IMG/VR virus record: IMGVR_UViG_2617270968_000003
Coordinates: 1-16,694 of that record
Length of the DNA stretch: 16,694 nt
Source: a virus
Lineage: Duplodnaviria; Heunggongvirae; Uroviricota; Caudoviricetes
Direction: 5' to 3' (one strand)
Shown here piece after piece: positions 268 through 16,694 of the stretch. Positions within the stretch are counted from its first letter, which is position 1, and each line of letters opens with the position of its first letter. A model generated the notes under the pieces. It ran no database searches, was not told the DNA's origin, and saw only the letters and a list, made by a program, of their open reading frames with translations. The position numbers were made by a program, and so were the translations under genes.

Positions 268-276
268 GGAGGAACA

Positions 277-1622: not shown

Positions 1623-1746
1623 ATGTCTGCACCTGCACTGCCTGATGTCAGAACAGTATTTTGATGAATTGCCAAGGTTACAATGGCACAAATACGGCAC
1701 AGGAGGAAACGTGGTGTATTTAAATATGGGGTAACTCTTTGATTTT

Positions 1747-3276
1747 AATGGTGCCGATAATAGGAGTCGAACCTACGACCTTCGCATTACGAATTATAAG
1801 AATCCACTTCTAATTCAAAGCATTACCCCATCAACACTGCGCTCACACGTCCCACCACATCAAAACATGTAAAGCCTTGCAAGCCATTGTGAGGCCTTAT
1901 GTGTCTCAGTTTTGTCCCACCTTGTATTACGACTTGCATAGCCAATGAAGATCAACGTGACGACAAACGGCGCAGCAGTCTTCTTTTCCTTCATACTTTC
2001 CCCAATCAGCATACATACTTTCTACCATAACTGTAGTGAATGTCTGTTATGAGCGAGCAAAAGAGATTCAATTACCGGGGAATTACTCCGACATAAGCTC
2101 TCCCAGAAACACCGGAACAGCGATTCGCATATTCTCTTCTATACTTTCAGTCTGACCGGCTGGAGATTTCATAGCAAGAAAATGGATGCGCCAAGACCTA
2201 TGCGGGAAAGAGGCTGAGGAAATAATTGCCGATAGCACTGTGCCCGCCGAAAAGTTATCTGGCACGCAATGACGCGCGTCCTTGGGGCATCAGGAATCAG
2301 AGAGCCAACTTAACAACCCATTATATATTATTTAACCGGACCGTTACATGTACAAAGTTCAATGATTAGTGATTCTGTGACGCCACATACAACCTAAGCC
2401 CCTGATATAAAACCAGTCTATGCAACACCTAAAAATCATATATGATAGGGTGATAAGTCAACGCGCAGTATAAAAATCAAGCTAAAAAATGCTTTCAGCA
2501 TAGTGAATCTATTTCACACTACATAATTAAGGATGAAAAAATGACTGCACCAGTAATTAGTTTTATCAATATGAAAGGTGGGGTTGGTAAAACAACTTTA
2601 TGCGTTGGGATTGCTGAGTTTTTAGCCAACCATATGGGGCGCAAGGTTCTAGTTATCGATATTGATCCTCAATTTAATGCCACTCAGTCCTTAATGGGGC
2701 ATTATGATCGAGTAGAAGAATATATGACTGCCCTTCGCCCTAATAATCAAACCATTCGAAAGATTTTTGAGCTTCCAAATTCATTAATGGAAGATGAAAA
2801 GAAAGTGACACCAGAACAGGTCATTACTAAAGTTTCAGACAATCTTGATATTATCTTAGGTGATATAAACATTATCTTTGATACTAACCAAGAGGGTATT
2901 AGAATAAAAATGTTGCGTAAATTCATCACCGAAAATGACTTAAAAGAAAGTTACGACTATATCTTTATCGATAGCCCCCCAACAATCTCATTATTTACAG
3001 ATACCGCACTCCTTGCTTCTGATTATTATCTTACTCCGGTTAAAATTGATCACTACTCGGTGCTTGGAGCAAGCAGTTTAAATAGCGTTATAAGAAATAT
3101 GCGCACACATCATGAGAAAGAAATCAAGCAAGTCGGTTACATTTATACAAACACTGATGCTGAAATGACCAATAAAACAAGGGAAATTAAAGAGCAATTC
3201 GAAAACCATACTCAATTTACAAATTTTTATTTCTTTGAAAATCAATTAACCTACGTGCGTGATTTAATGGTAGGTT
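1747..3276. repeat. Direct repeat copy 1 (about 1530 bp) of the element's left end: att fragment, 745-bp leader, 5' 736 nt of ParA-like gene
   Basis: Matches 15165..16694 at offset 13,418; verified by eye at both ends and at internal points; two 60-aa ORF translations in the track are identical between copies. Confidence 0.85.
1749..1794 (-). other. 46-nt 3' fragment of tRNA-Thr(CGU) (thrW-type) - attachment-site copy (ptwF-like tRNA pseudogene), copy 1
   Basis: Plus strand reads TGGTGCCGATAATAGGAGTCGAACCTACGACCTTCGCATTACGAAT, the reverse complement of a tRNA 3' end (CCA, acceptor stem, T-arm GGTTCGACTCC, anticodon loop with CGT); similarity stops where the 5' half of a tRNA should be, so the gene is partial. 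Confidence 0.8.
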
Positions 3277-3386
3277 ATCAAGGGAATATTCCTTCTTGTT
3301 ATTCAAAGTCACGCCAAGATATAGAAAAGATCTGTAACGAATTTATTAACAGAGTGGCTCACTTGGAAGGTAACACAAATGAATAA
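2541..3386 (+). CDS. ParA/MinD/Soj-family P-loop ATPase (deviant Walker A), 281 aa; first gene of a three-gene operon
   Basis: N-terminal ISFINMKGGVGKTT (KGGxGKT deviant Walker A), VIDIDPQ, IFIDSPP (ParA-type Walker B region); ATG at 2541 with AAGGA SD 7 nt upstream; AT-rich. Confidence 0.85.
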   Translation: MTAPVISFINMKGGVGKTTLCVGIAEFLANHMGRKVLVIDIDPQFNATQSLMGHYDRVEEYMTALRPNNQTIRKIFELPNSLMEDEKKVTPEQVITKVSDNLDIILGDINIIFDTNQEGIRIKMLRKFITENDLKESYDYIFIDSPPTISLFTDTALLASDYYLTPVKIDHYSVLGASSLNSVIRNMRTHHEKEIKQVGYIYTNTDAEMTNKTREIKEQFENHTQFTNFYFFENQLTYVRDLMVGYQGNIPSCYSKSRQDIEKICNEFINRVAHLEGNTNE

Positions 3387-3777
3387 ACAATTAATTAAAG
3401 CGCTCAATAAAGCTAACAATATGCCCATGACCAAAGAAAACTTCTTAGGCTTGGTAATTATGTTGATTCTTTCAAAAGAGGTTTTTAGATCAAATTTTGA
3501 TGTTAGTAAATTTATTAACAAAACCTTCAAAATATCTTTTTTGAATTATGCTGTACGGTCAAGAACTTTGATGTGCGCTAAAATTTGCAAACATATTAAT
3601 GAATTAAGTGAGAATGACATAAAGATGGCTTATACGCATTTCTTAAACAACATTAACACATTAGACATTATTTTTAATGATGCAAATAAAACAAGCCAAA
3701 AATCCACATCTAAAAGCAAGCATGCTATAAGGAATTTAAATATTTGGATTAATGCAAATAAAAAGGAAGAAGAATAA
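3379..3777 (+). CDS. Hypothetical protein, 132 aa, Lys/Asn-rich; second gene of the ParA-like operon
   Basis: ATG at 3379 overlaps the ParA stop by 8 nt (ATGAATAA) with GGAAGG SD; same AT-rich composition; no motif I can assign. Confidence 0.6.
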   Translation: MNKQLIKALNKANNMPMTKENFLGLVIMLILSKEVFRSNFDVSKFINKTFKISFLNYAVRSRTLMCAKICKHINELSENDIKMAYTHFLNNINTLDIIFNDANKTSQKSTSKSKHAIRNLNIWINANKKEEE

Positions 3778-4442
3778 TGCTCACGCAGGATCCCTTCAAC
3801 ATTGGAAGAGATGTAAATTATTTTAGAGCGGAGGTGCAAAAGCACCTCAGAACCACTGATGAAATAAACAAATCAGTATCAATATTTAGGCAAATAAGTC
3901 TTTGTAATACAATTTTAAGTCACAATCCTAATCTAAATCACTCTTCTTATATAAAAGGTTTTATATATGATACCTTAAACTCCTTAATTGCCATTATAAA
4001 AAAAAGAGAACGGTATCTCCAACTGAACTTCCGCTCAATGGTGGAGCATGTGGCCAGAATAAGCCTCAATAAGAACTACAATGGTGGGGATTTTGACCAA
4101 ACTGTACGTCGTAGAGACTTTGACTTCTTAAAAGCCCAACAAGTCGATGAAGGCTGGTCTTATTTACATAATGTCTATATCAACGCCTGTTATTATGTTC
4201 ACTCCTCCCCCCAAGCGAACCTAAATGTTACATCAACATTTATATCACTTATGGAGGGAGATTGTAATTCAACACAGCATAAAATGGTGAAAAAACTTCA
4301 TGAGGTAGTATCGGCGCTGATGAGAATCATTATAAAGTATTATCATCAGCATATCTCAAACATTTTCTTTAGAAACAAAAAGGATTTAGAGAAAATAATG
4401 GGAAAAAGCCTTTATTCATATTATACCAGCTTAGACAATTAA
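3777..4442 (+). CDS. Hypothetical protein, 221 aa; third gene of the ParA-like operon
   Basis: ATG at 3777 overlaps the previous stop (TAATG) with AAGGAAGA SD; AT-rich; no recognisable domain by eye. Confidence 0.6.
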   Translation: MLTQDPFNIGRDVNYFRAEVQKHLRTTDEINKSVSIFRQISLCNTILSHNPNLNHSSYIKGFIYDTLNSLIAIIKKRERYLQLNFRSMVEHVARISLNKNYNGGDFDQTVRRRDFDFLKAQQVDEGWSYLHNVYINACYYVHSSPQANLNVTSTFISLMEGDCNSTQHKMVKKLHEVVSALMRIIIKYYHQHISNIFFRNKKDLEKIMGKSLYSYYTSLDN

Positions 4443-4479
4443 TTCTCTCATATTCATTGCGTAGAGCATAAATATCTAT

Positions 4480-4900
4480 CTAACCACCTAAAATGCCAGA
4501 AAATCTAGTTGTATACCGGTGCGAAAATATCTCGCGTTTCATCTGCCACTGCTGCTGAATGCCCTGCCCAGCGAAACAGAGTGTTTCCTTCCCGTCTTTT
4601 GCGTTGAGGTGCTCCAGCACGCTCATTAACTTTTCGCTCCCAGGACCCAGCGCGTTATCGTCGAATAGGTTAGGGCATGCTCTGACTGAAGAAGTCCCCC
4701 AGCATTACCCCGGCTTTCTGATATCGGTGTCCGTCTTTCCATATTGCATCCAGACTCCCCGTTGCTACTGCAATGATATCCCGACTGTCCTGTGTCGGGA
4801 TGAGCAGCTTCACCGACGCGTTGTTACAGTAGTACGACTCGTTCAACGCAAAGGGTATCGTGTAAAACCGATGATGACACTGCCGGCAATCAGCACTGAC
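4480..4900 (-). pseudogene. umuC: 3' remnant of a umuC-like Y-family (Pol V) translesion polymerase gene; frameshifted and truncated
   Basis: Minus-strand translation gives ...PFALNESYYCNNASVKLLIPTQDSRDIIAVATGSLDAIWKDGHRYQKAGVMLGDFFSQ, then after a frameshift NLFDDNALGPGSEKLMSVLEHLNAKDGKETLCFAGQGIQQQWQMKREIFSHRYTTRF, closely matching the remembered C-terminal ~140 aa of E. coli UmuC; no intact ORF, N-terminal 2/3 absent. Confidence 0.75.
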
Positions 4901-5372
4901 GTCAGCAAACGTGAGAAAGAACAGATAAGCCGAACGATTTAGGAAATGTTTGAAGAGACTGATATGTGGATGGTTTCAGTTTAAACGCCTTGAACCGTCA
5001 TATTACCTAAGTACAATCCGCTGTGACTGGCAATCATTCAATACTTGCACTATCAAAAGTGCATCAGCCAACCGCAGCACGTCTTGCATACGACCTGTCT
5101 GCGGTTTCAATCACCTCTCACCACCAGTCCCATCAATAATAATTAAACAGCGCCTAAACAAAATAAATAACAACAAGTCAACAACCTCGACAGGATGCCG
5201 ATGGGATGATGAAGAGATAAGAAAGAATAACTAGTAAAGCCCTAAAACGTCAGCGTTCAGACGCGTTTTTTACTTAACCGGTAACAAATACGTTGTATCA
5301 TAGCAACATAAAATGATTGTTCTAAATCAGATTAACTCCTCACTTTTGTACAATGTCGCTTACAGGTATACC

Positions 5373-7262
5373 ATGAAATCCGAGACGCTAACTGTCCAAC
5401 AACTTTTTCAAGACCGCCGACAATACTGTGTTCCATTCTATCAACGTGCCTATGTATGGACTCAGCGAAACCAATGGTCAGCTCTACTGGAGGATATCCT
5501 AGAGAAAGCACAATCCCGGCTCTCGGGTACAAAACCAACTCCCCATTTCCTTGGTGCAGTTGTACTGGAACCTCAACCAAAAAAAGGATTATTCGGTGTA
5601 GATTCCATACATATTATTGATGGTCAGCAACGATTGACCACTCTTCAATATGTTCTGGCATCCATCCGATTAGCATTACGTGCAACAGATCTTTCCAACT
5701 TAGAGCCTCTCATTTCGTCTTGCCTGAAAAACTCAAACGAAGACACAATGCGAAATAAAGAAGTAGAGCGCTTCAAACTGTGGCCAACTTTTCGGGATCA
5801 AACTCATTTTATTCAAAGTTTTAATGTTGAAAATATTGACGATATCCGGAATGTATTCTCTGATAGTTTCACGCAGCATGGTACGTTGCGTAAGCATTTT
5901 AATCACCCGCCATCACTAGAAGCATTATGTTTTTTTACTGAAGCCTTTATAAAGTGGATTAAAATAGAAAATCACTCACCACGAGAAAATGCTGTAGCAT
6001 TAATTGAGGCTGTCTTGACGGATCTGAAACTAGTAAGCATATTTCTCGAGGCTGAAGATGACGCTCAAATAATTTTTGAAACATTAAATGGCAGAGGTGC
6101 GGAACTTCATGCCACAGATCTTATTCGCAATTATATTTTTATGTGCGCTGAACATGAAAATATTAATGCTGTTGAATTATATGAGAATGAGTGGAAGATC
6201 TTTGAAGATACGTACTGGTCAGAAAGACAACGTCGTGGTCGTATTAATAAACCACGCATGGAGTGGCTAGTGCATGCAACATTGCAATCAGAAAGGCAAC
6301 GTGAAATCGATCTGTCTCGTCTTTACAATGAGTATCGTGATTATGTAAGTAAGGACTTGCCTTCACAACGAGCAGATCTGCAAGTAAAGCGCCTCAAACA
6401 ATATGCATCACAATATAAAGAATTGGTTGGTGGTTTTGGCACAACCCCCATCTCACACTTTGGACATCGCATCGCAGCCTATGATGTGACGACACTTTAT
6501 CCGCTTGCTTTGTTCATTTCGATAGCTAACATCGCCGATGATGAGAAAGCAGCCATGTATAATGATCTTGTCTCCTACGTAGTACGAAGAGCCGTATGTG
6601 GCCTGACGCCAAAGAATTACAACAATGTATTTATGAATGTATTGCGGCACTTGTCTAAAACAGAAATTTCCAGTGTTGAGTTACGTAATATCCTCAATAG
6701 CTTAAATGGCGAAGCCTCACGTTGGCCTGGGGACTCAGAATTTCTCAACGCTTGCATCAATGCTCCACTTTATCCTGGCAGGCTCGACGCACCGAAAATG
6801 CGCTCAATGTTAACGGAACTTGAAAGAGAACTTTGTCGCCAAGTGAAGACAGAGAAGCCTGATGTTCCAAATCTTTCTAACCTCGATATCGATCATCTTA
6901 TGCCTCAAAGTTGGTATTCCTGTTGGCCTCTCGAAAATGGTCATATGGTGACAAATTCAGATGCTACGGTATTGAACCAAATTGTTCTGTCTGGAACCGA
7001 TCTTACCCCAGAACAGCTACTGGTAAGGAAACGGCAACAAGCGATAGCTACGTTGGGAAATCTAACTTTGCTTAACCTTAGCGTAAACCGTTCTGTTCAG
7101 AATGCTGTATTTCTGAAAAAACGTGATGCTCTCATCGTCCACACCAATCTACGACTGAACATTCCACTTATAGTTAAGGATAAATGGGATGAGGATGAAA
7201 TCCTGGAGCGGGGTAAAATGTTGGGGGAAATTGCATTGAAAGTATGGCCAAAACACGATTAA
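5373..7262 (+). CDS. GmrSD-family type IV (modification-dependent) restriction endonuclease: N-terminal DUF262 (ParB-like NTPase) + C-terminal DUF1524 (His-Me finger nuclease)
   Basis: DUF262 signatures VPFYQRAYVW and IIDGQQRLTT; C-terminal DIDHLMPQSW ... LGNLTLLNLSVNRSVQNAVFLKKR typical of DUF1524; about 630 aa. Start taken at 5373 (MKSETLT, weak AGG SD); in-frame ATG at 5313 is possible. Confidence 0.8.
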   Translation: MKSETLTVQQLFQDRRQYCVPFYQRAYVWTQRNQWSALLEDILEKAQSRLSGTKPTPHFLGAVVLEPQPKKGLFGVDSIHIIDGQQRLTTLQYVLASIRLALRATDLSNLEPLISSCLKNSNEDTMRNKEVERFKLWPTFRDQTHFIQSFNVENIDDIRNVFSDSFTQHGTLRKHFNHPPSLEALCFFTEAFIKWIKIENHSPRENAVALIEAVLTDLKLVSIFLEAEDDAQIIFETLNGRGAELHATDLIRNYIFMCAEHENINAVELYENEWKIFEDTYWSERQRRGRINKPRMEWLVHATLQSERQREIDLSRLYNEYRDYVSKDLPSQRADLQVKRLKQYASQYKELVGGFGTTPISHFGHRIAAYDVTTLYPLALFISIANIADDEKAAMYNDLVSYVVRRAVCGLTPKNYNNVFMNVLRHLSKTEISSVELRNILNSLNGEASRWPGDSEFLNACINAPLYPGRLDAPKMRSMLTELERELCRQVKTEKPDVPNLSNLDIDHLMPQSWYSCWPLENGHMVTNSDATVLNQIVLSGTDLTPEQLLVRKRQQAIATLGNLTLLNLSVNRSVQNAVFLKKRDALIVHTNLRLNIPLIVKDKWDEDEILERGKMLGEIALKVWPKHD

Positions 7263-7284
7263 TGCAATTAATAAAATGATTATA

Positions 7285-7310
7285 GCGGCCTTACATTAGT
7301 AAGGCCGCTA
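7285..7310 (+). terminator. Stem-loop downstream of the GmrSD gene (11-bp perfect stem AGCGGCCTTAC / GTAAGGCCGCT, 4-nt loop)
   Basis: Perfect inverted repeat 23 nt after the stop; trailing sequence only moderately T-rich, so may act as terminator or RNA-stability hairpin. Confidence 0.55.
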
Positions 7311-7512
7311 CTCACTATTAAATCCTTTAATTTGCAACAAGAACAGCAGTGTCAGCCCTAGGTTTCGGACTTTGTACCGCTTATCTTGTCTTCAAAAATC
7401 AGCTCGCATCCTGCACAGCTCAACGCATTACGTTGTAGATCGGTGTTCTGGTCATTTGTTGATACGCGTACATAGCCAATAAGCATGGTAGATCCCCCTG
7501 ACAAAAGCAGGA

Positions 7513-8085
7513 ATGATGCCATTTGCTCGTTATTTCTGCATTTTCATAAACGTTGGTTTGGGAGAAGGTGCTCCAGCTATTGGCGTTCCGTTCTTCTGGC
7601 CGTCCGCCGCAATGCCAAATACTGTAATCGACAGTTGGTCCAGTATGGTGTTTTTGAAGTTCAACGGCGCGAAATTCTCTGCCACTGATTACCCTGTGCT
7701 GGCGAAAGTGTTTCCGGCGCTAGCATTACCTGACGCACGGGGTGATTTCATTCGTATCTGGGATGATGGGCGCGGGATTGATGTCGGACGTACCCTACTT
7801 TCAGGGCAATCACACACAATTATGGATCATGCACACAATATGGAATTGTGGACGGGGGACGGGCTTGCCGCAGGAAGTGCACGGGAAGGAGTAAACCCAG
7901 GAATACTGGCTACATACGGTGACGGGGGAATAGTTAAAACGGACGAACCCGGTCTTAAGGTGCCTTCCTCACTACGAGCTCTTAGCTCTCGTAGTGTTAA
8001 ACGTTATGGTGAAATTAGTGGAAATGTAGATACAGAAACCCGTCCACGAAATATTGCATTTAACTTTCTGGTGAGGGCTAAATAA
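7513..8085 (+). CDS. Phage tail-fibre C-terminal fragment (tail-collar domain), 190-aa ORF; probably a remnant
   Basis: PFFWP...MPNTVIDSW...NGAKFSATDYPVLAKVFP...LPDARGDFIRIWDDGRGID fits the phage tail-collar pattern; C-terminal ...ETRPRNIAFNFLVRAK is tail-fibre-like; no N-terminal anchoring region and no other structural genes nearby. Confidence 0.5.
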   Translation: MMPFARYFCIFINVGLGEGAPAIGVPFFWPSAAMPNTVIDSWSSMVFLKFNGAKFSATDYPVLAKVFPALALPDARGDFIRIWDDGRGIDVGRTLLSGQSHTIMDHAHNMELWTGDGLAAGSAREGVNPGILATYGDGGIVKTDEPGLKVPSSLRALSSRSVKRYGEISGNVDTETRPRNIAFNFLVRAK

Positions 8086-8146
8086 TGATACCTGTTTTTG
8101 ATGAAAATGGGCTGGCTACAGTGCCGGGCGATATGCGTTGTTTTTA

Positions 8147-8320
8147 TTATAATGCAGTATCCCCTTCACAACGGTGAGCCACACGCCCACTCTGACGTAA
8201 CTTGCTTGCTGACTGCTGAACGCGCTGCCGCGAGTAACCAGCAAAAGCATCCGCAATGTCTCCGGAAGTACACCCCGGATTGGCTTCAATGAATTTCTGA
8301 ACGTCATTTAACAGACTCAT
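8147..8320 (-). CDS. Small hypothetical protein (57 aa), possible winged-helix DNA-binding protein, coupled to the replication gene
   Basis: ATG at 8320 lies 2 nt after the TGA stop of the upstream gene, with an AGGGGG SD; translation MSLLNDVQKFIEANPGCTSGDIADAFAGYSRQRVQQSASKLRQSGRVAHRCEGDTAL; under 60 aa so absent from the ORF track. Confidence 0.4.
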   Translation of the reverse strand: MSLLNDVQKFIEANPGCTSGDIADAFAGYSRQRVQQSASKLRQSGRVAHRCEGDTAL

Positions 8321-8322
8321 GA

Positions 8323-9264
8323 TCACCCCCTGAATCCTGCCGGGATCTGGCTGTAGTCCACGTTGTCGTAACTGGCTTTGAAGTACGGGTCTTCACGTTT
8401 TTCTGTGTGCGTGCTGACGGACGGCGATAAGCGCAGGGAAAGCTCATCCCATTTTTCCCGCAACTTCGACGGGCTGAGCACGTTACGGCACCAGAACGGA
8501 TCGCGGCTGACGCGGCTGTACATCTCGCAGATTTGTTTGTGAGTACGACCATCCTGCACACACATCAGGCGAATTTCGTTTGCCCAGGCTGTCCAGTTAG
8601 GTTCTTTGGGACGAACCACCTCGCCGTCACATTCGGCGGCCTGCTCGTACAGGGCGATGATTTTTTTCCAGAGCCACTGTGCGCAGGTCAAATCATCCTG
8701 CGTTCCCCACTGGCGCTTTTTAGAGCTGAATACAACCGCATCAGGATGACGAGTTAAAAAATCCTGTTCATCCTTCTTCATGTCCGGTTGCGAAGCGTCC
8801 GGACGAGAAGTTTTTTTATCTGACGGATCATGTTTTGATTTTACTGACGGATCCCCGCCAGATTCTGACGGGTGAAAACCCGCTTTTTTGCCAGATTTCG
8901 ACGCATCAAATTTTGACGGGTCAGATTTTGATGCGTCAGATTTTGACGGGTCAGAATCTGACAGTTGAGAAAATGCCGCTGCCTGAAGCTTCGCAACGTT
9001 AAGCTGATAAACATTCGACGCATTGCGGTTACCCTGGCGACGCGCCTTACGCGTTAACCAGCCTTCTGCTTCCAGCCGTGCGATAGCCGTTCTGACGGTA
9101 CTCATCCCCGCGCCAATCTGGCGGGCAATGGTTTCAATTGATGGCCAGCACACACCTTCGTCATTACTGAAATCAGCCAGGCGGGCCATAATTGCCACGC
9201 TGGATAACTTCATGCCTGACGCAGCGCAACCATCCCATACATAGCCGGTTAATTTAGTGCTCAT
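8323..9264 (-). CDS. Phage replication initiation protein (lambda O-like: N-terminal winged HTH, pentapeptide-repeat linker, C-terminal domain), 313 aa
   Basis: N-terminus LSSVAIMARLADFSNDEGVCWPSIETIARQIGAGMSTVRTAIARLEAEGWLTRKARRQGNRNASNVYQLN resembles replication-initiator wHTH domains; GAGG SD before ATG at 9264; position after cro/CII genes on the same strand. Confidence 0.65.
   Translation of the reverse strand: MSTKLTGYVWDGCAASGMKLSSVAIMARLADFSNDEGVCWPSIETIARQIGAGMSTVRTAIARLEAEGWLTRKARRQGNRNASNVYQLNVAKLQAAAFSQLSDSDPSKSDASKSDPSKFDASKSGKKAGFHPSESGGDPSVKSKHDPSDKKTSRPDASQPDMKKDEQDFLTRHPDAVVFSSKKRQWGTQDDLTCAQWLWKKIIALYEQAAECDGEVVRPKEPNWTAWANEIRLMCVQDGRTHKQICEMYSRVSRDPFWCRNVLSPSKLREKWDELSLRLSPSVSTHTEKREDPYFKASYDNVDYSQIPAGFRG
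8861..8964. repeat. Imperfect tandem 15-bp repeats (GATTTTGACGGGTCA-like, about 6 units) inside the replication-initiator gene, encoding DPSKS/DASKS pentapeptide repeats
   Basis: Units at 8861, 8894, 8909, 8924, 8939 and a partial one at 8954; protein shows SDSDPSKSDASKSDPSKFDASKSGKK. Confidence 0.8.
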
Positions 9265-9273
9265 GACCGACCT

Positions 9274-9612
9274 CTATTTCCCTGAATTTACGACGAAACT
9301 GTTCGAGCGGGCTGAAGCACTCATGCTCATAGCCTTCGCGGAGGTAGATAACCCGTTGTGTTTCCGGCTCCCAACGAATGACTCTGACGGGTACTCCGTA
9401 GTGATCTTTGAACCAGCGGTTAACTTGTCGCAAAGGACTGTCTCCTTCTGCCGGTTGAAATCACCCACAGCCCACTCTGCAAAGCTGTGGGTTACAATTT
9501 CCCTGTCACCTGGTACATTCACTGCATAGCAATATTCCACCTTCGCTTTTCCACCCGGTACAGGAAGCGCAATCAGTTGCGAGCGACGGTAGTGTGTTGT
9601 TAAACTGTTCAT
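9274..9612 (-). CDS. Hypothetical protein, 112 aa, between CII-like and replication genes
   Basis: ATG at 9612 overlaps the CII-like stop as ATGA; GGAGA SD 9 nt upstream; stop 9 nt before the next gene's SD. Contains a 9-bp perfect hairpin at 9463..9492. No recognisable domain. Confidence 0.45.
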
Positions 9613-10178
9613 GCGTTAGTTTCTCCACAACCAGAAGCAATCGACGCCACGACGCCCGGAGCTGCACACTCGCGGGCGTCATTACTTTCTGAAATGCAAA
9701 AAATTTTGTAAACAAGTGCTGCATGCTCCTGCAGCTTCGAAATTGAGAGATACAGCTCGTCGTTAATTGCTGTCTTCTCATGCGGTTCCACTACACCGTC
9801 TTCGATTGCTGAACGAATCTGTTTTGAATAACTGCCGATCTGTTCAATGACTTCCAGCAGACGCTGGTTAATATCGGCGTTGTCCACATCCTCGACGTCA
9901 GGAAGAGACACAAAGACGCCATTTGCAGACTGCGCCACAGCATCAGCAATGAAGTGAGTGCCACCAGCACGCTGTAAAACCATTGCCCATCCCAGCGGGA
10001 AAATCTGATCGCCATCTGCACGAAGGCGGTTGAATAAAGCGTTTTCTGTTACATCGAGCCAGTCAGCCGCTTCAGCGTAACCACCCGGCAACGCCGCGAT
10101 AGTTTTTCTGACAGCTTTCACGTACCACTCAGGCTGTTTTTCTATTTTCCAGTGATGCTTACCCACGATTAGCCTCAT
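9609..10178 (-). CDS. Phage regulatory protein, CII-like (CP76/YdaT-like family), 189 aa
   Basis: Immediately downstream of the cro-like gene on the same strand, as lambda cII is; size and context fit the enterobacterial prophage CII-like family; family assignment is from memory. Confidence 0.5.
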
Positions 10179-10209
10179 CGTTCTGTGGTTAAAAATTGAA
10201 AGTGTTCTG

Positions 10210-10410
10210 CTAATCTTTCGGATAGATATCCGGTCTTAAGTCAGATTTCGTAATTGCACCTGACGTGCATTGCTCAAGTTTTTTAGCCAGCACAAAACTG
10301 GCTTTTTTATAGCCATTGAAAACCAGCCGTAAGTAGCCAGGTGTTGAGCCAACTTTTCCGGCCAACTCGCCCTGCTGTTCTTTGGTTAAAGAGTCCCAAT
10401 ACGATTTCAT
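10210..10410 (-). CDS. Cro/YdaS-like HTH transcriptional regulator, 66 aa
   Basis: ATG at 10410 with GGAGG SD 9 nt upstream; MKSYWDSLTKEQQGELAGKVGSTPGYLRLVFNGYKKASFVLAKKLEQCTSGAITKSDLRPDIY resembles Cro/YdaS-type HTH proteins; divergent from the cI-like gene. The longer 167-aa ORF in the track is an upstream extension without SD. Confidence 0.65.
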   Translation of the reverse strand: MKSYWDSLTKEQQGELAGKVGSTPGYLRLVFNGYKKASFVLAKKLEQCTSGAITKSDLRPDIYPKD

Positions 10411-10500
10411 ACGATATGTACCTCCGGTGTACATATTACATGATTGAAATGAACCTTCAAGATACTTGTACCTTAACGGTACAAGGGTTTTAATTTCGTT
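10411..10500. promoter_or_regulatory. Divergent cI/cro intergenic control region with two palindromic operator-like sites
   Basis: Inverted repeats ATGTACCTCCGGTGTACAT (10416..10434) and CTTGTACC-TTAAC-GGTACAAG (10465..10485), both built on TGTACC/GGTACA half-sites, between divergent repressor and cro-like starts. Confidence 0.6.
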
Positions 10501-11175
10501 ATGAAAACAATCCATGACATCCGGCGGTCTAACGCCAGAAAACTGAGAGATGGTGTTGGCGGGAATTCTTCCTTTGCCACTATGATTGATCGCGAGCCAA
10601 CCCAGACCAGCAGGTTTATGGGAGATGGTGCTACTAAAAATATCGGTGACAGCATGGCACGACACATCGAAAAATGTTTCGACCTGCCTGTCGGATGGCT
10701 CGATCAAGAACACCAGACAACGAACATCACAAAAAAACCTGATGTTTCAATCACTAATAAACAAATCACATTAGTCCCTGTCATATCATGGGTACAGGCC
10801 GGAGCATGGAAAGAAGTTGGATATTCTGAGGTTGATTTGAGCACAGCAGAAACGTATCCCTGCCCTGTACCCTGTGGGGAAATGACTTATATCTTGCGGG
10901 TGATAGGTGATTCAATGATTGATGAGTACCGCCCGGGAGACATGATTTTTGTCGATCCTGAAGTACCTGCCTGCCACGGTGACGACGTTATTGCATTGAT
11001 GCACGATACAGGTGAAACCACCTTCAAAAGGTTGATAGAAGATGGGACACAGCGTTATCTCAAAGCGTTAAACCCAAACTGGCCTGAGCCTTACATTAAG
11101 ATCAACGGTAATTGCTCTATAATTGGAACTGTGATTTTCTCAGGAAAACCAAGAAGATACAAAATCAAAGCCTAA
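10501..11175 (+). CDS. CI-like phage repressor with C-terminal S24 (LexA-like) autopeptidase domain, 224 aa
   Basis: C-terminal VIGDSMIDEYRPGDMIFVDP...GDDVIA (S24 Ser site GDSM, later Lys); divergent from cro-like gene; no SD upstream of the ATG, so possibly leaderless like lambda cI from PRM. Confidence 0.75.
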   Translation: MKTIHDIRRSNARKLRDGVGGNSSFATMIDREPTQTSRFMGDGATKNIGDSMARHIEKCFDLPVGWLDQEHQTTNITKKPDVSITNKQITLVPVISWVQAGAWKEVGYSEVDLSTAETYPCPVPCGEMTYILRVIGDSMIDEYRPGDMIFVDPEVPACHGDDVIALMHDTGETTFKRLIEDGTQRYLKALNPNWPEPYIKINGNCSIIGTVIFSGKPRRYKIKA

Positions 11176-11187
11176 TCAATGTTTATG

Positions 11188-11210
11188 AACCTGCTTCGGC
11201 AGGTTTTTTT
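11188..11210 (+). terminator. Rho-independent terminator after the cI-like gene
   Basis: AACCTGC-TTCG-GCAGGTT hairpin followed by TTTTTTT, 13 nt after the stop. Confidence 0.75.
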
Positions 11211-11214
11211 ATAC

Positions 11215-11243
11215 TTGACAATGTACCCTTGAGATACATAATG
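11215..11243 (+). promoter_or_regulatory. Sigma70-like promoter (TTGACA, 17-nt spacer, ATAATG) overlapped by two direct AATGTACCC repeats
   Basis: TTGACA at 11215..11220 and CATAAT/ATAATG at 11237..11243; the repeats share the TGTACC half-site seen in the cI/cro operators. Confidence 0.5.
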
Positions 11244-11323
11244 TACCCAAGAGAAACAACAAACAGGCAGAACGCCCACGAAGTAGCCGCCTGGGGCATA
11301 TGAAGTCCAGGATGATTCGTTAG

Positions 11324-11351
11324 CAACAAAAAAGCGCCCTACAGGACGCTT
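11324..11351 (-). terminator. Rho-independent terminator on the minus strand (8-bp stem with one G-U, UGUA loop, U-run)
   Basis: Minus strand reads AAGCGUCC-UGUA-GGGCGCUU followed by UUUUUUGUUG; on the plus strand the hairpin lacks a U-run. Confidence 0.55.
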
Positions 11352-11409
11352 AGCTCTTTAACAATCTGGTCCCCATCAACAAGTAACTGATAACTTGAGG
11401 AGGTGTGAA

Positions 11410-11616
11410 ATGCACAAAACAGAACCCAAAATCGTCGCGCCCGGATACACAAATGAGGAAATTTACGAGTGGATGGCAAAGAAGCTGGCAGCTATAAACC
11501 AGCTTCGTGAAGTGCTGTCTTATCGACAGGAAATAATAGACTCCTTAAAAAAACTGGATCAGGAAATCACGGTTTTATCACAGGATGTTACTTTAGATAT
11601 TGTGCAGACAAATTAG
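11410..11616 (+). CDS. Small hypothetical protein, 68 aa
   Basis: ATG at 11410 with GAGGAGGTG SD; coiled-coil-like composition; 3' end overlaps the convergent 144-aa gene by 29 nt. Confidence 0.5.
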   Translation: MHKTEPKIVAPGYTNEEIYEWMAKKLAAINQLREVLSYRQEIIDSLKKLDQEITVLSQDVTLDIVQTN

Positions 11617-12022
11617 GATCCCATTCATTTTCGTCAAAATCATCAAAGTGATGAATTTGTGATCTCCAGTCTCGATAATCTAAAAATTTCTGGGCGGTTA
11701 CGCTTATTTTATCAAGTGTGAGTTCATCCTGAATTGAAAGAAGAAGTTCATCAAATTTCATCTCATTAATCTGTTTTGGCATCCAGTGATGCTTCATCAG
11801 AATAAGGTGAACCAGAGCCTTTTTCCCATTCAACTGATTATAGGGAGTGCCGAATTTCTTCCGGTGCTCATGTAAGACAAGGTCCAGAAGAGTAAGTAAT
11901 GTTGCCCTTGATTCGACTTTGCTTATTTCGACTGATGACACTACCCCACTGATTTCAATGCCCCGATACTTTCCAACATTTTCACAGTGGGATTTGTACA
12001 GCGTGTAGATATTACCGGACAT
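11588..12022 (-). CDS. Hypothetical protein, 144 aa; orphan accessory gene in the immunity region
   Basis: ATG at 12022 with AAGGAAAAG SD; AT-rich; no recognisable domain; sits where lambdoid phages carry rex/sie-type exclusion genes. Confidence 0.55.
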   Translation of the reverse strand: MSGNIYTLYKSHCENVGKYRGIEISGVVSSVEISKVESRATLLTLLDLVLHEHRKKFGTPYNQLNGKKALVHLILMKHHWMPKQINEMKFDELLLSIQDELTLDKISVTAQKFLDYRDWRSQIHHFDDFDENEWDPNLSAQYLK

Positions 12023-12099
12023 TTCTTTTCCTTTTGCGTTGTTGGGGATAACCAGATTAACCGAATCCTTGTTGTTGGGGAATAACCAGGTCCACCTCG

Positions 12100-12500
12100 C
12101 CTGATGTGGCTAAAAGCAGGCACATAACAGCTAAGTATTTTCAACCAGAGAGAATCCTTAGCGTTGTGGTGAATGCGGCTCAGCGCACGCGGGTTAAGGT
12201 TGAGGCTGACAGTCGACCTTCTGTGGATACCTACCCGCCTGGTGTGCAACCTTCGCCAGGCACCGGGAGGCACCCGGCACCACAACTTTATGCTGTGTGT
12301 AGTCCTGGCGGTACCAGTTTGTACCCTTGCTTCCGGCTGGTACCGTCCTTTTTACAAAACAGAGAAGAGCATCACCGGACGACGGGCTCATAACCCAATC
12401 CATCCGGGCGGCTGCCACCGCAGGTGTTCTTCTCTGTTTTGTGGAGAAACTAACCGCCCCTGCGGGGGCATCTATTGAAACGTAATTGACTCAATAATCG
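12100..12500. other. GC-rich, hairpin-dense non-coding block upstream of the early operon; candidate structured RNA and/or operator region
   Basis: ORFs open in several frames on both strands (typical of GC-rich non-coding DNA); 15-bp perfect inverted repeat 12354..12368 / 12428..12442; 9-bp hairpin 12309..12317 / 12337..12345; further GC hairpins at about 12237..12262, 12263..12280 and 12456..12470. Confidence 0.4.
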
Positions 12501-12567
12501 CCGGATGGTGAGGGCTTCCTTTTCCCAAAATTCAGCGCGGTGCAGCGCATATAAAGTGGAGAACGAA

Positions 12568-13104
12568 ATGTCATTTATTAAAACTTTTTCCGGGAAGCAT
12601 TTTTATTATGACAAGATAAATAAAGACGACATCGTTATTAACGATATCGCGGTTTCCCTTTCAAATATCTGCCGCTTTGCCGGTCATCTTTCTCACTTCT
12701 ACAGCGTCGCCCAACATGCGGTGCTTTGCAGCCAGCTGGTGCCGCAGGAATTTGCTTTTGAAGCTTTAATGCATGATGCAACAGAAGCATATTGCCAGGA
12801 CATCCCCGCACCACTGAAACGACTTCTTCCTGACTATAAACGGATGGAAGAAAAAATAGACGCCGTAATCCGTGAGAAATACGGGTTACCTCCTGTTATG
12901 AGCACGCCAGTGAAATATGCCGATCTCATTATGCTGGCAACCGAACGCCGCGATCTCGGGCTTGATGATGGCTCTTTCTGGCCTGTGCTGGAAGGTATCC
13001 CGGCAACAGAGATGTTCAACGTGATTCCACTGGCTCCAGGCCATGCCTACGGGATGTTTATGGAACGCTTTAACGAATTATCGGAGTTACGCAAATGCGC
13101 ATGA
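12568..13104 (+). CDS. HD-domain metal-dependent phosphohydrolase (YfbR/YfdR-like 5'-deoxynucleotidase family), 178 aa
   Basis: H...HD...D pattern (SVAQHAV, LMHDATEAY, QDIP); ATG at 12568 with GGAG SD; the track's 12505 start has no SD. Confidence 0.65.
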   Translation: MSFIKTFSGKHFYYDKINKDDIVINDIAVSLSNICRFAGHLSHFYSVAQHAVLCSQLVPQEFAFEALMHDATEAYCQDIPAPLKRLLPDYKRMEEKIDAVIREKYGLPPVMSTPVKYADLIMLATERRDLGLDDGSFWPVLEGIPATEMFNVIPLAPGHAYGMFMERFNELSELRKCA

Positions 13105-13457
13105 ATGTTTTCGAAATGGAAGGGTTTCTTCGTGGGAGATGTGTACCGCGAGATCTGAAAGTGAATGAAACGGATGCTGAATACCTAGTGCGTAAATTCG
13201 ATGCGCTTGAAGCTAAATGTGCAGCACAGGAAAACAAAGTAATACCAGTGTCAACTGAACTGCCACCAGCAAATGAAAGTGTTTTGTTATTCGATGCTAA
13301 CGGAGAAGGCTGGCTAATTGGCTGGCGTTCTCTCTGGTACACCTGGGGACAAAAAGAAACCGGAGAATGGCAGTGGACATTTCAGGTCGGGGACCTTGAA
13401 AACGTCAATATCACTCACTGGGCAGTAATGCCAAAAGCACCGGAGGCTGGAGCATAA
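13095..13457 (+). CDS. DUF551-like phage protein, 120 aa
   Basis: Trp-rich C-terminal half (GWLIGWRSLWYTWGQ...WQW...THWAVMP) typical of DUF551 prophage proteins; start overlaps the HD gene stop; GGAG SD. Confidence 0.5.
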   Translation: MRMNVFEMEGFLRGRCVPRDLKVNETDAEYLVRKFDALEAKCAAQENKVIPVSTELPPANESVLLFDANGEGWLIGWRSLWYTWGQKETGEWQWTFQVGDLENVNITHWAVMPKAPEAGA

Positions 13458-13762
13458 TGACCACTTTTACCGACAAAGAACTGATTAAAGAAATTAAAGA
13501 GCGTATCAGCAGCCTTGACGTGCGAGACGATATTGAGCGCCGTGCTTATGAAATCGCACTCCTATCTCTGGAAGTAGAACCAGATGAACGCGAAGCTTAT
13601 GAATTATTCATGGAAAAGCGTTTTGGTGACTTAGTAGATCGTCGGAGAGCAAAAAACGGCGATAACGAATACATGGCATGGAATATGACTCTCGGTTGGA
13701 TCGTCTGGCAGCAACGAGCTGGTATCCATTTCTCAAAAATCTCACAGCAAGAGGTGAAATAA
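13457..13762 (+). CDS. Hypothetical phage protein, 101 aa
   Basis: ATG overlaps the previous stop (TAATG); stop overlaps the xis start (TAATG); part of a coupled operon. Confidence 0.5.
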   Translation: MTTFTDKELIKEIKERISSLDVRDDIERRAYEIALLSLEVEPDEREAYELFMEKRFGDLVDRRRAKNGDNEYMAWNMTLGWIVWQQRAGIHFSKISQQEVK

Positions 13763-14112
13763 TGGAGCCATACAGCCTCACACTCGATGAGGCCTGTCAT
13801 TTTCTCAAGATATCCAGACCGACTGCCATTAACTGGATACGCACAGGGCGTCTTCAGGCAACACGCAAAGATCCCACTAAGAATAAATCTCCTTACCTCA
13901 CAACACGACAAGCCTGCATTGCGGCTCTTCAGTCTCCGCTGCATACTGTCCAGGTGAGCGCGGGTGATGGCATAACAGAGGAAAGAAAATGTCACTCTTC
14001 CGCAGAGGTGAAATATGGTACGCCAGTTTCACATTGCCGAACGGTAAAAGATTTAAACAGTCTCTTGGAACAAAGGACAAAAGGCAGGCGACAGAACTCC
14101 ATGACAAGCTAA
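13762..14112 (+). CDS. xis: Excisionase (Xis/AlpA-type HTH), 116 aa, overlapping the integrase start
   Basis: [37 protein letters not shown] matches the excisionase-family HTH pattern; GAGGTG SD before ATG at 13762; 3' 124 nt overlap the integrase in another frame. Confidence 0.65.
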
Positions 14113-15152
14113 AGGCTGAAGCATGGCGGGTCAGCAAACTTGGTGAAATACCTGATATAACGTTCGAGGAAGCGTGTGTCAGGTGGCTTGAAGAGAAAGC
14201 ACATAAAAAATCACTGGACGATGACAAAAGCCGGATCGGATTCTGGCTTCAACATTTCGCAGGAATGCAACTAAGAGACATTACTGAATCAAAAATTTAT
14301 TCAGCAATGCAGAAAATGACGAACCGGCGTCATGAGGAAAACTGGAGACTCAGGGCAGAAGCATGCAGAAAAAAAGGGAAACCTGTTCCAGAATACACGC
14401 CAAAACCAGCGTCCGTTGCAACGAAGGCTACGCATCTTTCATTTATAAAGGCCCTACTAAGAGCCGCAGAGCGTGAATGGAAAATGCTGGATAAGGCACC
14501 AATTATTAAAGTGCCTCAACCAAAGAATAAACGGATCCGCTGGCTGGAGCCCCATGAAGCACAAAGGCTGATTGATGAATGTCCGGAGCCATTAAAGTCT
14601 GTTGTTGAATTTGCACTGGCAACAGGTTTAAGACGCTCGAACATCATCAACCTTGAATGGCAACAAATAGATATGCAGCGCCGGGTGGCATGGATAAACC
14701 CGGAAGAGAGTAAATCAAACCGCGCAATTGGCGTTGCGCTGAATGATACTGCATGTCGCGTATTGAAAAAACAAATCGGGAATCATCACCGTTGGGTATT
14801 TGTGTACAAGGAAAGCTGTACCAAACCAGACGGAACGAAAGCGCCAACAGTAAGGAAGATGCGGTATGACGCAAACACAGCCTGGAAAGCGGCGCTGAGA
14901 CGGGCTGGTATTGATGATTTCAGATTTCACGACTTGAGACACACCTGGGCAAGTTGGCTGGTTCAAGCCGGAGTCCCGTTGTCAGTGTTACAGGAAATGG
15001 GAGGCTGGGAGTCTATCGAAATGGTTCGTCGATATGCTCACCTTGCACCTAATCACCTTACCGAACACGCACGGCAAATAGACTCGATCCTGAACCCATC
15101 GGTCCCAAATTTGTCCCAGTCAAAAAATAAGGAAGGTACTAATGATGTGTAA
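13989..15152 (+). CDS. int: Tyrosine-type site-specific recombinase (phage integrase), 387 aa
   Basis: N-terminal arm-binding-like [34 protein letters not shown]; C-terminal catalytic [12 protein letters not shown] ... MVRRYAHL (R-H-R-Y); ends 14 nt before the tRNA-fragment att copy. Confidence 0.85.
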
Positions 15153-15166
15153 CTTATTGATTTAAA

Positions 15167-15212
15167 TGGTGCCGATAATAGGAGTCGAACCTACGACCTT
15201 CGCATTACGAAT
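15167..15212 (-). other. 46-nt 3' fragment of tRNA-Thr(CGU), attachment-site copy 2, directly after int
   Basis: Identical to the fragment at 1749..1794; again followed by element-left-end sequence instead of the tRNA 5' half. Confidence 0.8.
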
Positions 15213-15958
15213 TATAAGAATCCACTTCTAATTCAAAGCATTACCCCATCAACACTGCGCTCACACGTCCCACCACATCAAAACATGTAAAGCCTTGCAA
15301 GCCATTGTGAGGCCTTATGTGTCTCAGTTTTGTCCCACCTTGTATTACGACTTGCATAGCCAATGAAGATCAACGTGACGACAAACGGCGCAGCAGTCTT
15401 CTTTTCCTTCATACTTTCCCCAATCAGCATACATACTTTCTACCATAACTGTAGTGAATGTCTGTTATGAGCGAGCAAAAGAGATTCAATTACCGGGGAA
15501 TTACTCCGACATAAGCTCTCCCAGAAACACCGGAACAGCGATTCGCATATTCTCTTCTATACTTTCAGTCTGACCGGCTGGAGATTTCATAGCAAGAAAA
15601 TGGATGCGCCAAGACCTATGCGGGAAAGAGGCTGAGGAAATAATTGCCGATAGCACTGTGCCCGCCGAAAAGTTATCTGGCACGCAATGACGCGCGTCCT
15701 TGGGGCATCAGGAATCAGAGAGCCAACTTAACAACCCATTATATATTATTTAACCGGACCGTTACATGTACAAAGTTCAATGATTAGTGATTCTGTGACG
15801 CCACATACAACCTAAGCCCCTGATATAAAACCAGTCTATGCAACACCTAAAAATCATATATGATAGGGTGATAAGTCAACGCGCAGTATAAAAATCAAGC
15901 TAAAAAATGCTTTCAGCATAGTGAATCTATTTCACACTACATAATTAAGGATGAAAAA

Positions 15959-16694
15959 ATGACTGCACCAGTAATTAGTTTTATCAATATGAAAGGTGGG
16001 GTTGGTAAAACAACTTTATGCGTTGGGATTGCTGAGTTTTTAGCCAACCATATGGGGCGCAAGGTTCTAGTTATCGATATTGATCCTCAATTTAATGCCA
16101 CTCAGTCCTTAATGGGGCATTATGATCGAGTAGAAGAATATATGACTGCCCTTCGCCCTAATAATCAAACCATTCGAAAGATTTTTGAGCTTCCAAATTC
16201 ATTAATGGAAGATGAAAAGAAAGTGACACCAGAACAGGTCATTACTAAAGTTTCAGACAATCTTGATATTATCTTAGGTGATATAAACATTATCTTTGAT
16301 ACTAACCAAGAGGGTATTAGAATAAAAATGTTGCGTAAATTCATCACCGAAAATGACTTAAAAGAAAGTTACGACTATATCTTTATCGATAGCCCCCCAA
16401 CAATCTCATTATTTACAGATACCGCACTCCTTGCTTCTGATTATTATCTTACTCCGGTTAAAATTGATCACTACTCGGTGCTTGGAGCAAGCAGTTTAAA
16501 TAGCGTTATAAGAAATATGCGCACACATCATGAGAAAGAAATCAAGCAAGTCGGTTACATTTATACAAACACTGATGCTGAAATGACCAATAAAACAAGG
16601 GAAATTAAAGAGCAATTCGAAAACCATACTCAATTTACAAATTTTTATTTCTTTGAAAATCAATTAACCTACGTGCGTGATTTAATGGTAGGTT
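15959..16694 (+). CDS. ParA/MinD-like ATPase, second copy, 3' end beyond window
   Basis: Identical to 2541..3276 of copy 1 by the repeat offset; same Walker A motif. Confidence 0.8.
   Translation, partial: MTAPVISFINMKGGVGKTTLCVGIAEFLANHMGRKVLVIDIDPQFNATQSLMGHYDRVEEYMTALRPNNQTIRKIFELPNSLMEDEKKVTPEQVITKVSDNLDIILGDINIIFDTNQEGIRIKMLRKFITENDLKESYDYIFIDSPPTISLFTDTALLASDYYLTPVKIDHYSVLGASSLNSVIRNMRTHHEKEIKQVGYIYTNTDAEMTNKTREIKEQFENHTQFTNFYFFENQLTYVRDLMVG

Follow-up and report, generated by a model that had tools for sequence, protein, structure and literature searches.

Tandem lysogeny at the tRNA gene thrW has been described for Shigella flexneri, in which SfI and SfX integrate experimentally one behind the other next to proA, with an att site between the two prophages, the newcomer having entered at the attL nearer to thrW (Sun et al. 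2011, PMC3306764). Tandem prophages that share one att site are also well documented in E. coli (PMC8112680), and the 46-nt attP core of SfI, SfII, SfV, SfX and P22 has been published as ATTCGTAATGCGAAGGTCGTAGGTTCGACTCCTATTATCGGCACCA (PMC3636060). A further array is found in the chromosome of E. coli ET201 (NZ_CP100994.1), where two intact units of about 40.0 kb lie exactly head-to-tail in the order attR-unit-attP-unit-thrW, followed by proA, with 0 mismatches between the copies, as read from an assembly that contains many indel errors.

A second point of comparison is e14 of E. coli K-12, a defective lambdoid prophage of 14-15 kb that has int/xis, ymfK/ymfT/ymfL, a pin/tail-fibre inversion cassette and, beside its att end, the type IV restriction enzyme McrA. 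e14 excises as a circle after SOS induction, and we know of no tandem form of it.

The locus described here, a stretch of 16,694 nt from an IMG/VR virus record (the window), uses the same Int/Xis/attP system, identical core and chromosomal site as SfI and SfX. Whereas these are two different intact infectious phages that arrived by sequential infection, the visible ends here are identical and belong to an unpackageable 13.4-kb remnant. The Int protein (WP_223716396.1) is identical to that of ET201 and the array would have the same architecture, although the ET201 units are full-length, with head, tail and lysis genes.

Results

The left end of the element recurs directly after its integrase gene (Table 1). 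In a base-by-base comparison at an offset of 13,418, positions 1747-3276 and 15165-16694 show 0 mismatches over 1,530 nt (100% identity), which bears out a match first made by eye; the extent is taken from this comparison, as the repeat finder listed only the 300-nt reference copy. A chance origin of a perfect repeat of this length is impossible. The repeat begins 2 nt ahead of the 46-nt att core. The preceding 16 nt (1731-1746 and 15149-15164) agree at 13 of 16 positions, with mismatches at 1737, 1738 and 1746, and left of 1731 and 15149 identity drops to background, about 25-30%. The second copy ends with the window, inside the ParA gene, and the visible part of the second unit is only 1.5 kb.

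Table 1. Features of the 16,694-nt window; positions count from its first letter.
Feature	Position	Strand	Basis
Chromosomal flank: paoC 3' end (1-267), paoD (277-1233), LysR-type pseudogene = yagP remnant (1284-1622)	1-1730	+	RefSeq annotation, 100%-identical loci L001-L003
Chromosomal DNA immediately downstream of thrW (B' side, bacterial type)	1731-1746		Same sequence beside ptwF in K-12
att core copy 1 (attR): 46 nt of thrW 3' end, partial tRNA = K-12 ptwF	1749-1794	-	Published attP core
P' arm of attP; GTCCCA motifs at 1849 and 1914	1795-1920		Alignment: conserved in SfI and P22-like phage L
Cargo operon: ParA-family ATPase (2541-3386), 132-aa protein (3379-3777), 221-aa protein (3777-4442)	2541-4442	+	Pfam
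umuC-like (DUF4113) and dinI pseudogene fragments	4480-4942		RefSeq annotation of L001
GmrSD-type (DUF262) type IV modification-dependent restriction enzyme	5373-7262	+	Pfam GmrSD_N and GmrSD_C
Tail-fibre inversion module remnants	7364-8156		L001 annotation; blastn against full-length relatives
Deletion junction: tfa' joined to first ~57 codons of PerC-like gene	8156-8157		blastn against relatives
O-like replication initiator (HTH_36)	8323-9264	-	Pfam
e14-type immunity region	9254-11175		L001 annotation; Pfam Phage_CP76, Peptidase_S24
Early-left accessory genes	11410-13762		L001 annotation; Pfam
xis, 116 aa, HTH_17	13762-14112	+	Pfam
int, P22/SfV-type tyrosine integrase, 387 aa from first ATG	13989-15152	+	Pfam Phage_integrase, PF00589, E=3.5e-48
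Complete attP-type junction: int 3' end/P arm, 46-nt core, P' arm	15090-15340		Contiguity in free phages; alignments
Start of second unit: core, P' arm, leader, first 245 ParA codons (15959-16694)	15165-16694	+	100% identical to 1747-3276

Both cores, the second at 15167-15212, carry the thrW 3' end in reverse complement and match the reverse complement of the published attP core exactly; the annotated thrW of locus L001 ends with the same 46 nt. The original prediction had taken both att copies for partial tRNAs, had placed the int stop 14 nt from the second copy and had described, for K-12, a tRNA pseudogene next to yagP with an integrase gene directly beside it. All three agree with what we found: both copies hold the same 46 nt and ARAGORN detects no complete tRNA anywhere in the window, the int stop codon ends at 15152 while the core starts at 15167, and K-12 carries the same flank beside the CP4-6 end (ptwF), with the same core at 297209-297254, between yagP and intF. 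The CP4-6 element at the ptwF end is itself unrelated, its intF (466 aa) reading inward from ptwF. Beyond the first core, phage homology stops after about 125 nt, and the two GTCCCA motifs in this P' arm are candidate arm-type Int sites.

The junction that follows int has the parts of a complete attP. Its P arm contains GTCCCA at 15102 and 15113, and its P' arm at 15267 and 15332. Because the block is contiguous, up to window position 15337, in the free phage genomes of SfIV, SfV, SfI and SfII at 98.4-99.5% identity, it is a complete attP; it also aligns with the mid junction of ET201 and with the attP of SfI and of phage L. Where the element is single-copy, this P arm and core lead into the remainder of thrW. 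To the left of the core, the 16 nt of the first copy are of bacterial type and those of the second of phage type, which is the pattern expected of an attR followed by an attP. Judged by its sequence, the junction links the right end of the element with its own left end in the manner of an attP, and an internal complete attP lies between the end of int and the cargo end of the next unit.

The integration genes belong to the same lineage. With the RefSeq start at 14034, int encodes the 372-aa protein WP_223716396.1; its nucleotide identity is 98.4-99.5% to SfIV, SfV, SfI and SfII and about 79% to P22, with int, xis and attP together 98-99% identical to those of the four Sf phages. The length of int and its 14-nt spacing to the core are as in SfI, and Xis shows 94% amino acid identity to SfI Xis over its full length. 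The module thus combines a thrW-identical core, an integrase of the P22/SfV lineage directly upstream of attP and a xis that overlaps the int start. Both int and xis are full-length ORFs, 94-99% identical to those of functional phages, and Int/Xis may be active in the source strain.

By gene content and order, the unit is a 13,418-bp deletion remnant of an SfV/e14-type lambdoid prophage in thrW, beside paoD/yagP, and belongs to a well-known phage family of Shigella and E. coli. It retains int, xis, immunity genes, an O-like replication gene and the ParA/GmrSD cargo block, and it is devoid of lysis, packaging, head and tail genes. What is left of the inversion module is part of a pin-type recombinase gene on the minus strand (7364-7486), a C-terminal piece of a tail-fibre gene (7516-8085) and tfa up to codon 24 (8085-8156). 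Across the deletion junction, 8044-8155 matches tfa in relative L016 and 8157 onward matches relative L006 from its position 3454; the PerC-like gene joined to tfa' is the one downstream of the replication gene, and the nin region, Q and the lysis, terminase, head and tail genes are gone at this point. The SfI/SfV cos 10-mer does not occur within the element. Within the O-like gene, 15-nt iterons form an array at 8892-8966 (direct-repeat family D2), a candidate replication origin. In the immunity region, a DUF4222 gene (9254-9433), the CII-like ymfL (9609-10166) and the Cro-like ymfT (10210-10410) lie on the minus strand and ymfK (10501-11175), encoding a CI/LexA-type S24 repressor, on the plus strand; the early-left genes comprise a hypothetical gene, an ECs1072-family gene, a frameshifted ORF, the 5'-deoxynucleotidase gene yfdR and two genes for small phage proteins.

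With ymfK/ymfT/ymfL, a pin/tail-fibre cassette in which pin is a fragment, and the loss of morphogenesis genes, the element has the make-up of an e14-like defective lambdoid prophage. It is not e14 itself, as it sits in thrW with an SfV-type Int rather than in icd with the e14 integrase, and it carries GmrSD where e14 has McrA; the pin gene of e14 is intact. The resemblance to e14 lies in how the element works. Nor is it a phage satellite (P4-like or PICI), because, the one internal deletion at 8156/8157 aside, its genes follow the order of full-length SfV-like prophages, a Pfam search of the element found no satellite hallmark families and cos is absent. Full-length relatives show the SfV-type architecture, lambdoid with Mu-like tail genes.

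The first cargo protein matches Pfam AAA_31/CbiA, while the 132-aa and 221-aa proteins have no Pfam family and the operon has no convincing PADLOC match; the operon is kept at the left end of full-length relatives. The restriction gene is recognized at full length as PADLOC mREase_IV (1436 bits).

A 100%-identical element is present in five complete genomes, as a single copy in each (5/5) and followed directly by intact thrW and proA; intact thrW lies directly right of int in every related genome. The remnant was found in tandem in 0 of 5,426 complete genomes, and among 1,268 carriers of this int only 3 have a contiguous int-attP-P' arm junction. The second left end shows 0 differences from loci bearing the same remnant, whereas all 17 sampled relatives with the ParA arm differ from the repeat by 1-13 mismatches and at least one indel.

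Discussion

An int-core-left-arm join of this type is the generic mark of a tandem lysogen or of an excised circle, that is, of two copies in a row or of a looped-out element, both of which are ordinary for such phages. We favour a real chromosomal tandem over a circle captured by the assembly, and hold the chances to be about evenly balanced that the repeat is the start of a second, identical 13,418-bp unit placed head-to-tail after the first at thrW. The source molecule would then read paoD-yagP', attR, unit 1, attP, unit 2, with attL, intact thrW and proA beyond the window. A P22/SfV-type Int would recombine the 46-nt core common to attP and the thrW 3' end, so that a prophage has a partial tRNA at its cargo end (attR) and a restored tRNA at its int end (attL), and a second unit beside the first would leave a complete attP between them, as at 15090-15340. 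With neither packaging genes nor cos left in the remnant, the second unit could not have come in as a virion and must have formed inside the cell, either when Int/Xis excised a circle that Int reinserted into an att site of a sister chromosome, or by unequal attL x attR exchange between sister chromosomes, for which Int/Xis or, over the 48 identical nt, RecA would be responsible. A perfect 13.4-kb tandem is expected to be RecA-unstable, and it may therefore be present in only part of the population.

The same junction would arise if the source held one integrated copy and, in some cells, an excised 13.4-kb circle or replicating concatemer whose attP junction was threaded into the assembly, the apparent second copy being the same DNA read twice by the assembler or in a chimeric or concatemeric long read. 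We regard this as a serious possibility, albeit one that would be somewhat surprising. Excision yields exactly such a complete attP, and the single-copy state of the identical element in complete genomes fits this explanation. Since int, xis, the SOS-cleavable repressor YmfK and the O-like initiator with its iterons are all retained, induction, excision and perhaps replication are plausible; excised forms of this phage family have been deposited as circular 'plasmids' (pCE-O153H30-A; CP077666, CP085522 and NZ_CP148393), as have the 15.2-kb e14-like OR902858 and OR902851. However, the deletion has cut short the gene that follows the initiator, which makes autonomous replication uncertain. Moreover, assemblers normally give a separate circular contig rather than a fusion behind the integrated copy, and the path in the window is continuous from chromosomal flank through the whole unit into the next. 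Of the original prediction of a tandem organisation, the attP-type junction stands and its list of alternatives includes the answer; the tandem as such is not proven by it, given that the identical element is single-copy in those five genomes and that a circle gives the same sequence.

The second unit could also be a different SfV-like prophage, for instance a full-length one, that came by infection and shares attP, P' arm and ParA left end. Accretion of unlike elements at thrW is common (as in EC21Z-144, and in P4-type islands beside the same ParA arm), the published SfI and SfX double lysogen is a case in point (PMC3306764), relatives of full length that share the ParA/GmrSD left end occur widely, and the second unit is visible for 1.5 kb only. 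We nevertheless consider such a mixed array improbable, as the visible 1,530 nt equal unit 1. The repeat is the remnant's own allele, from which all 17 relatives differ, and the original suggestion of two relatives sharing a left end is therefore disfavoured.

A pure assembly artefact with no attP molecule in the sample, either a de Bruijn mis-walk or a circular-contig wrap-around, is very improbable. At k below 48, an assembler could have connected the int arm with the P' arm through the short core (46-48 nt) without a spanning read, and the repeat does extend exactly to the window end. But de Bruijn unitigs do not hold the same 1.5 kb twice. The first copy, which begins at 1747, is preceded by 1.7 kb of true chromosomal flank and so is no terminal overlap of a circular contig, and both window ends fall inside genes (paoC and ParA), as if the window had been cut arbitrarily out of something longer.

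The phenomenon itself, with its integration system and site, is already known from published tandem lysogens formed by exactly this Int/attP system at thrW (PMC3306764), and the repeat opens no new biological question. When genomes are scanned, read-level evidence should be sought for an int-core-left-arm join before any meaning is assigned to it. Should the junction be real, whether as a tandem or as a circle, a cryptic prophage with heavy deletions would have kept its int/xis/att machinery active. Loss, duplication or relocation of the element with its type IV restriction cargo would then be possible, and the thrW locus would be unstable in an outbreak-associated ST10/ST8087 E. coli lineage.

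A more specific idea, which we think quite improbable, is that the packaging-dead remnant excises and reinserts beside itself through Int/Xis and thereby amplifies its defence cargo (GmrSD and the three-gene ParA operon). In that case, site-specific recombination would serve to switch the copy number of a domesticated defence island, possibly under selection for dosage, such as attack by phages with modified DNA. As in the Shigella serotype-converting phages, the cargo slot of the element lies immediately after attP; here it holds ParA, two further ORFs and GmrSD instead of gtrABC, and in pCE-O153H30-A the place of GmrSD is taken by Avs2.

The left end of the remnant recurs behind int

The original prediction held that positions 1747-3276 recur at 15165-16694, and a full comparison of the two copies bears this out: in a self-comparison of the window at an offset of 13,418, 1,530 of 1,530 positions agree, with 0 differences (the repeat tool lists the pair merely as a 300-nt reference copy). 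Immediately to the left, 13 of 16 nt match between 1731-1746 and 15149-15164, and further left identity is at background level. The second copy is cut by the end of the window within the ParA gene. Each copy contains the same 46 nt of the thrW 3' end, the core, and ARAGORN detected no complete tRNA in the window.

Features of the window and their coordinates
Feature	Position	Remarks
paoC', paoD, LysR pseudogene (yagP remnant)	1-1730	annotation of identical chromosomes
46-nt core, TGGTGCCGATAATAGGAGTCGAACCTACGACCTTCGCATTACGAAT	1749-1794; 15167-15212	
ParA-family ATPase, 132-aa ORF, 221-aa ORF	2541-4442	operon
15-nt iterons, five to six, CAGATTTTGACGGGT-like	8892-8966	inside O-like HTH_36 gene, 8323-9264, minus strand
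25-nt inverted repeat, 84% complementary, 39-nt spacer	12354-12378 / 12418-12442	in annotated frameshifted hypothetical gene
GTCCCA motifs	15102, 15113, 15267, 15332; also 1849, 1914	plus strand

The 16 nt flanking the core are of different types at the two junctions: on the left they are bacterial, without any difference from K-12, and internally they are of the phage type, exactly as next to int in genomes with a single copy. An attR followed by an attP should look like this. The join at ~15090-15340, which consists of the P arm (int side), the core and the P' arm (ParA side), is a complete attP.

Read as its reverse complement, the core equals the attP core published for SfI, SfII, SfV and SfX, which P22 is reported to share (PMC3636060). 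The segment 14000-15337 (int, core and ~125 nt past the core) is contiguous in free phage genomes, with an identity of 99.5% for SfIV, 98.9% for SfV, 98.4% for SfI and SfII and ~79% for P22-like phages. The int ORF of SfI has the same length (387 aa) and stops the same 14 nt ahead of the annotated core, and Xis is 94% identical to its SfI counterpart. The window has six distinct GTCCCA hexamers on the plus strand; four of them surround the att core in a span of ~230 nt, with two in each arm, and phage L, which is P22-like, retains all four in its attP despite an overall identity of 79%. These four are candidate arm-type Int binding sites.

The remnant is single-copy in identical chromosomes

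Five complete E. coli chromosomes match the window at 100% identity. Four of them (IAL7250, IAL7252, IAL7254 and IAL7255) stem from an O3:H2 outbreak in Brazil, and the fifth, BS74R-D, comes from Switzerland. Each of the five matches begins at position 1 and ends at 15212, where the remaining part of an intact thrW (tRNA-Thr) takes over, followed by proA. Because int is directly followed by the complete thrW in each of them, the remnant is single-copy there. The window has the identical int arm and core, but continues with the remnant's own left arm instead of thrW. The flank is also present in K-12, where the 46-nt partial tRNA likewise lies between yagP and intF at the end of CP4-6; what the original prediction says of K-12 is thus correct.

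Two of the five chromosomes carry an extra IS element within the remnant, which is otherwise identical: ISCro1 in the tail-fibre fragment of BS74R-D (22991-25606 of locus L002) and an rve-type IS between DUF4222 and ymfL in IAL7255 (24635-25693 of locus L003). These differing insertions indicate that decay of the remnant is ongoing in this lineage. At another locus, L030, an IS1 lies inside ParA. The paper on the outbreak of the IAL strains (PMC13141912) makes no mention of the thrW remnant locus, of tandems or of duplications.

The unit is a packaging-dead prophage remnant

The early region is lambdoid and of the e14 type, with ymfK (S24 repressor), ymfT, ymfL, DUF4222 and an O-like HTH_36 initiator. 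The iterons within the initiator gene resemble a lambda-style origin; the downstream gene is shortened by deletion. Compared with full-length relatives, the unit has a single deletion junction, at 8156/8157, where the beginning of tfa meets that of the gene following the initiator; the whole stretch from the nin region up to the tail fibres is lost. The cos 10-mer of SfI/SfV was not found in the remnant. With the late genes and cos missing, the unit is a 13.4-kb packaging-dead remnant of an SfV/e14-type prophage. A phage satellite (P4-like or PICI) was ruled out, since the remnant is collinear with full-length prophages apart from the one deletion.

The cargo adjoining attP comprises a ParA-family ATPase, two unassigned ORFs, umuC' and dinI' fragments and a GmrSD type IV restriction enzyme; elsewhere, this slot holds gtrABC (Sf phages) or Avs2 (the circular relative pCE-O153H30-A). 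Many prophages in thrW have the three-gene ParA operon conserved at the end nearest attP, and 1,045 assembly blocks are listed for its 132-aa protein. Neither this protein nor the 221-aa protein belongs to a Pfam or PADLOC family. Partition and defence were considered as possible roles of the operon; a known defence system was rejected, PADLOC giving only a weak P-loop match.

Origin of the attP junction

An attP junction can be part of a head-to-tail array or of an excised circle or concatemer, but of no other molecule, and its sequence does not tell the two apart. Of the tandem organisation originally predicted, the attP-type head-to-tail junction therefore stands, but the array as such is not proven, given that a circle or concatemer gives the same junction and that the five identical genomes are single-copy.

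Our preferred reading is a tandem in the chromosome, just as the source assembly has it, and we give it roughly an even chance. Tandem prophages with a common att site are well known from E. coli (PMC8112680), and tandem integration at thrW has been demonstrated in experiments with SfI and SfX (PMC3306764). Moreover, E. coli ET201 (NZ_CP100994.1, 3564197-3644254) carries two copies of an intact relative at thrW, with three att cores in the order attR-unit-attP-unit-thrW; the Int protein encoded there is identical to that of the window. This pair is exactly head-to-tail like the proposed array, although its unit is ~40.0 kb and intact rather than a 13.4-kb remnant. The ET201 copies differ by 0 mismatches and 39 indels (indel noise), and both a biological tandem and a long-read assembly effect were considered for them.

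What speaks against a tandem is that the int-attP-arm junction is rare among complete genomes. This int is carried by 1,268 of the 5,426 complete E. coli genomes in RefSeq; a contiguous int-attP-arm junction is found in only three of these carriers, none of which involves the remnant. In a search for what follows position 16694, the exact 83-nt junction had 0 matches across IMG/VR, the representative genomes of GTDB and the JGI metagenomes, and int upstream of ParA was present in none of the longest contigs listed for Int, the 132-aa protein, GmrSD or the tail-fibre fragment in exact-protein searches. A shorter junction pattern of 66 nt matched 22 viral contigs and two chromosomes, but was discarded as non-diagnostic for tandems: most matches are ordinary attR sites, because the flank in several strains shares 9 nt with the phage P arm.

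Alternatively, an excised circle or concatemer may have been threaded into the assembly, which we regard as possible but not probable. The remnant retains int, xis and an SOS-type repressor, and excised relatives as well as e14-like circles have repeatedly been deposited as 'plasmids'. However, the deposited forms are separate circular records and are not fused behind an integrated copy. PLSDB holds no 13.4-kb circular 'plasmid' record of the remnant. A heterotypic array, with a different relative sharing the left end as second unit, is unlikely: the 1,530 nt have 0 differences from loci bearing the same remnant, whereas 17 of 17 ParA-arm relatives differ, by 1-13 mismatches and at least one indel each. 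A pure artefact deserves little weight, and a circular-contig wrap-around, named in the original prediction among its possible refuters, is ruled out because 1.7 kb of chromosome precede the first copy.

Returning to the chromosomal tandem, packaging of the remnant is impossible, and its second copy would thus not stem from infection. Int and Xis could excise a circle, which Int would reinsert at an att site of a sister chromosome. An unequal attL x attR exchange between sister chromosomes, by Int/Xis or by RecA on 48-nt identity, could also generate the array. We infer the formation step itself; the observed junction is expected from every one of these routes.

The integration module, the site, the remnant type and tandem lysogeny at thrW are already described, and the identical remnant is already in annotated public genomes; the sole new detail is the attP junction shown by this particular remnant. 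The phenomenon is ordinary in either form.

Relatives and surroundings of thrW

The 44.8-kb circular 'plasmid' pCE-O153H30-A (NZ_CP172337.1) is an excised SfV/e14-like phage genome with Avs2 cargo. Its attP is damaged (~38885-39230): the 46-nt core is reduced to its first 25 nt, ~132 nt of core and P' arm are gone, and a repeat tract of the CCCTT type has been inserted. Such damage might be the reason for its unintegrated persistence. Two 15.2-kb E. coli 'plasmids' in PLSDB (OR902858.1 and OR902851.1), with hin/pin, a LexA-type repressor, tfaE and mcrA, resemble e14 circles that were excised and then submitted as plasmids.

Finally, thrW is an accretion hotspot, at which islands with P4-type integrases lie directly left of the same ParA arm in heterotypic tandem arrays (loci L019, L022, L026, L029, L032, L033, L035 and L038). 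These islands carry reverse transcriptases, an OLD-TOPRIM and UvrD pair, RelA/SpoT-like genes or Psu/Ogr satellite genes.
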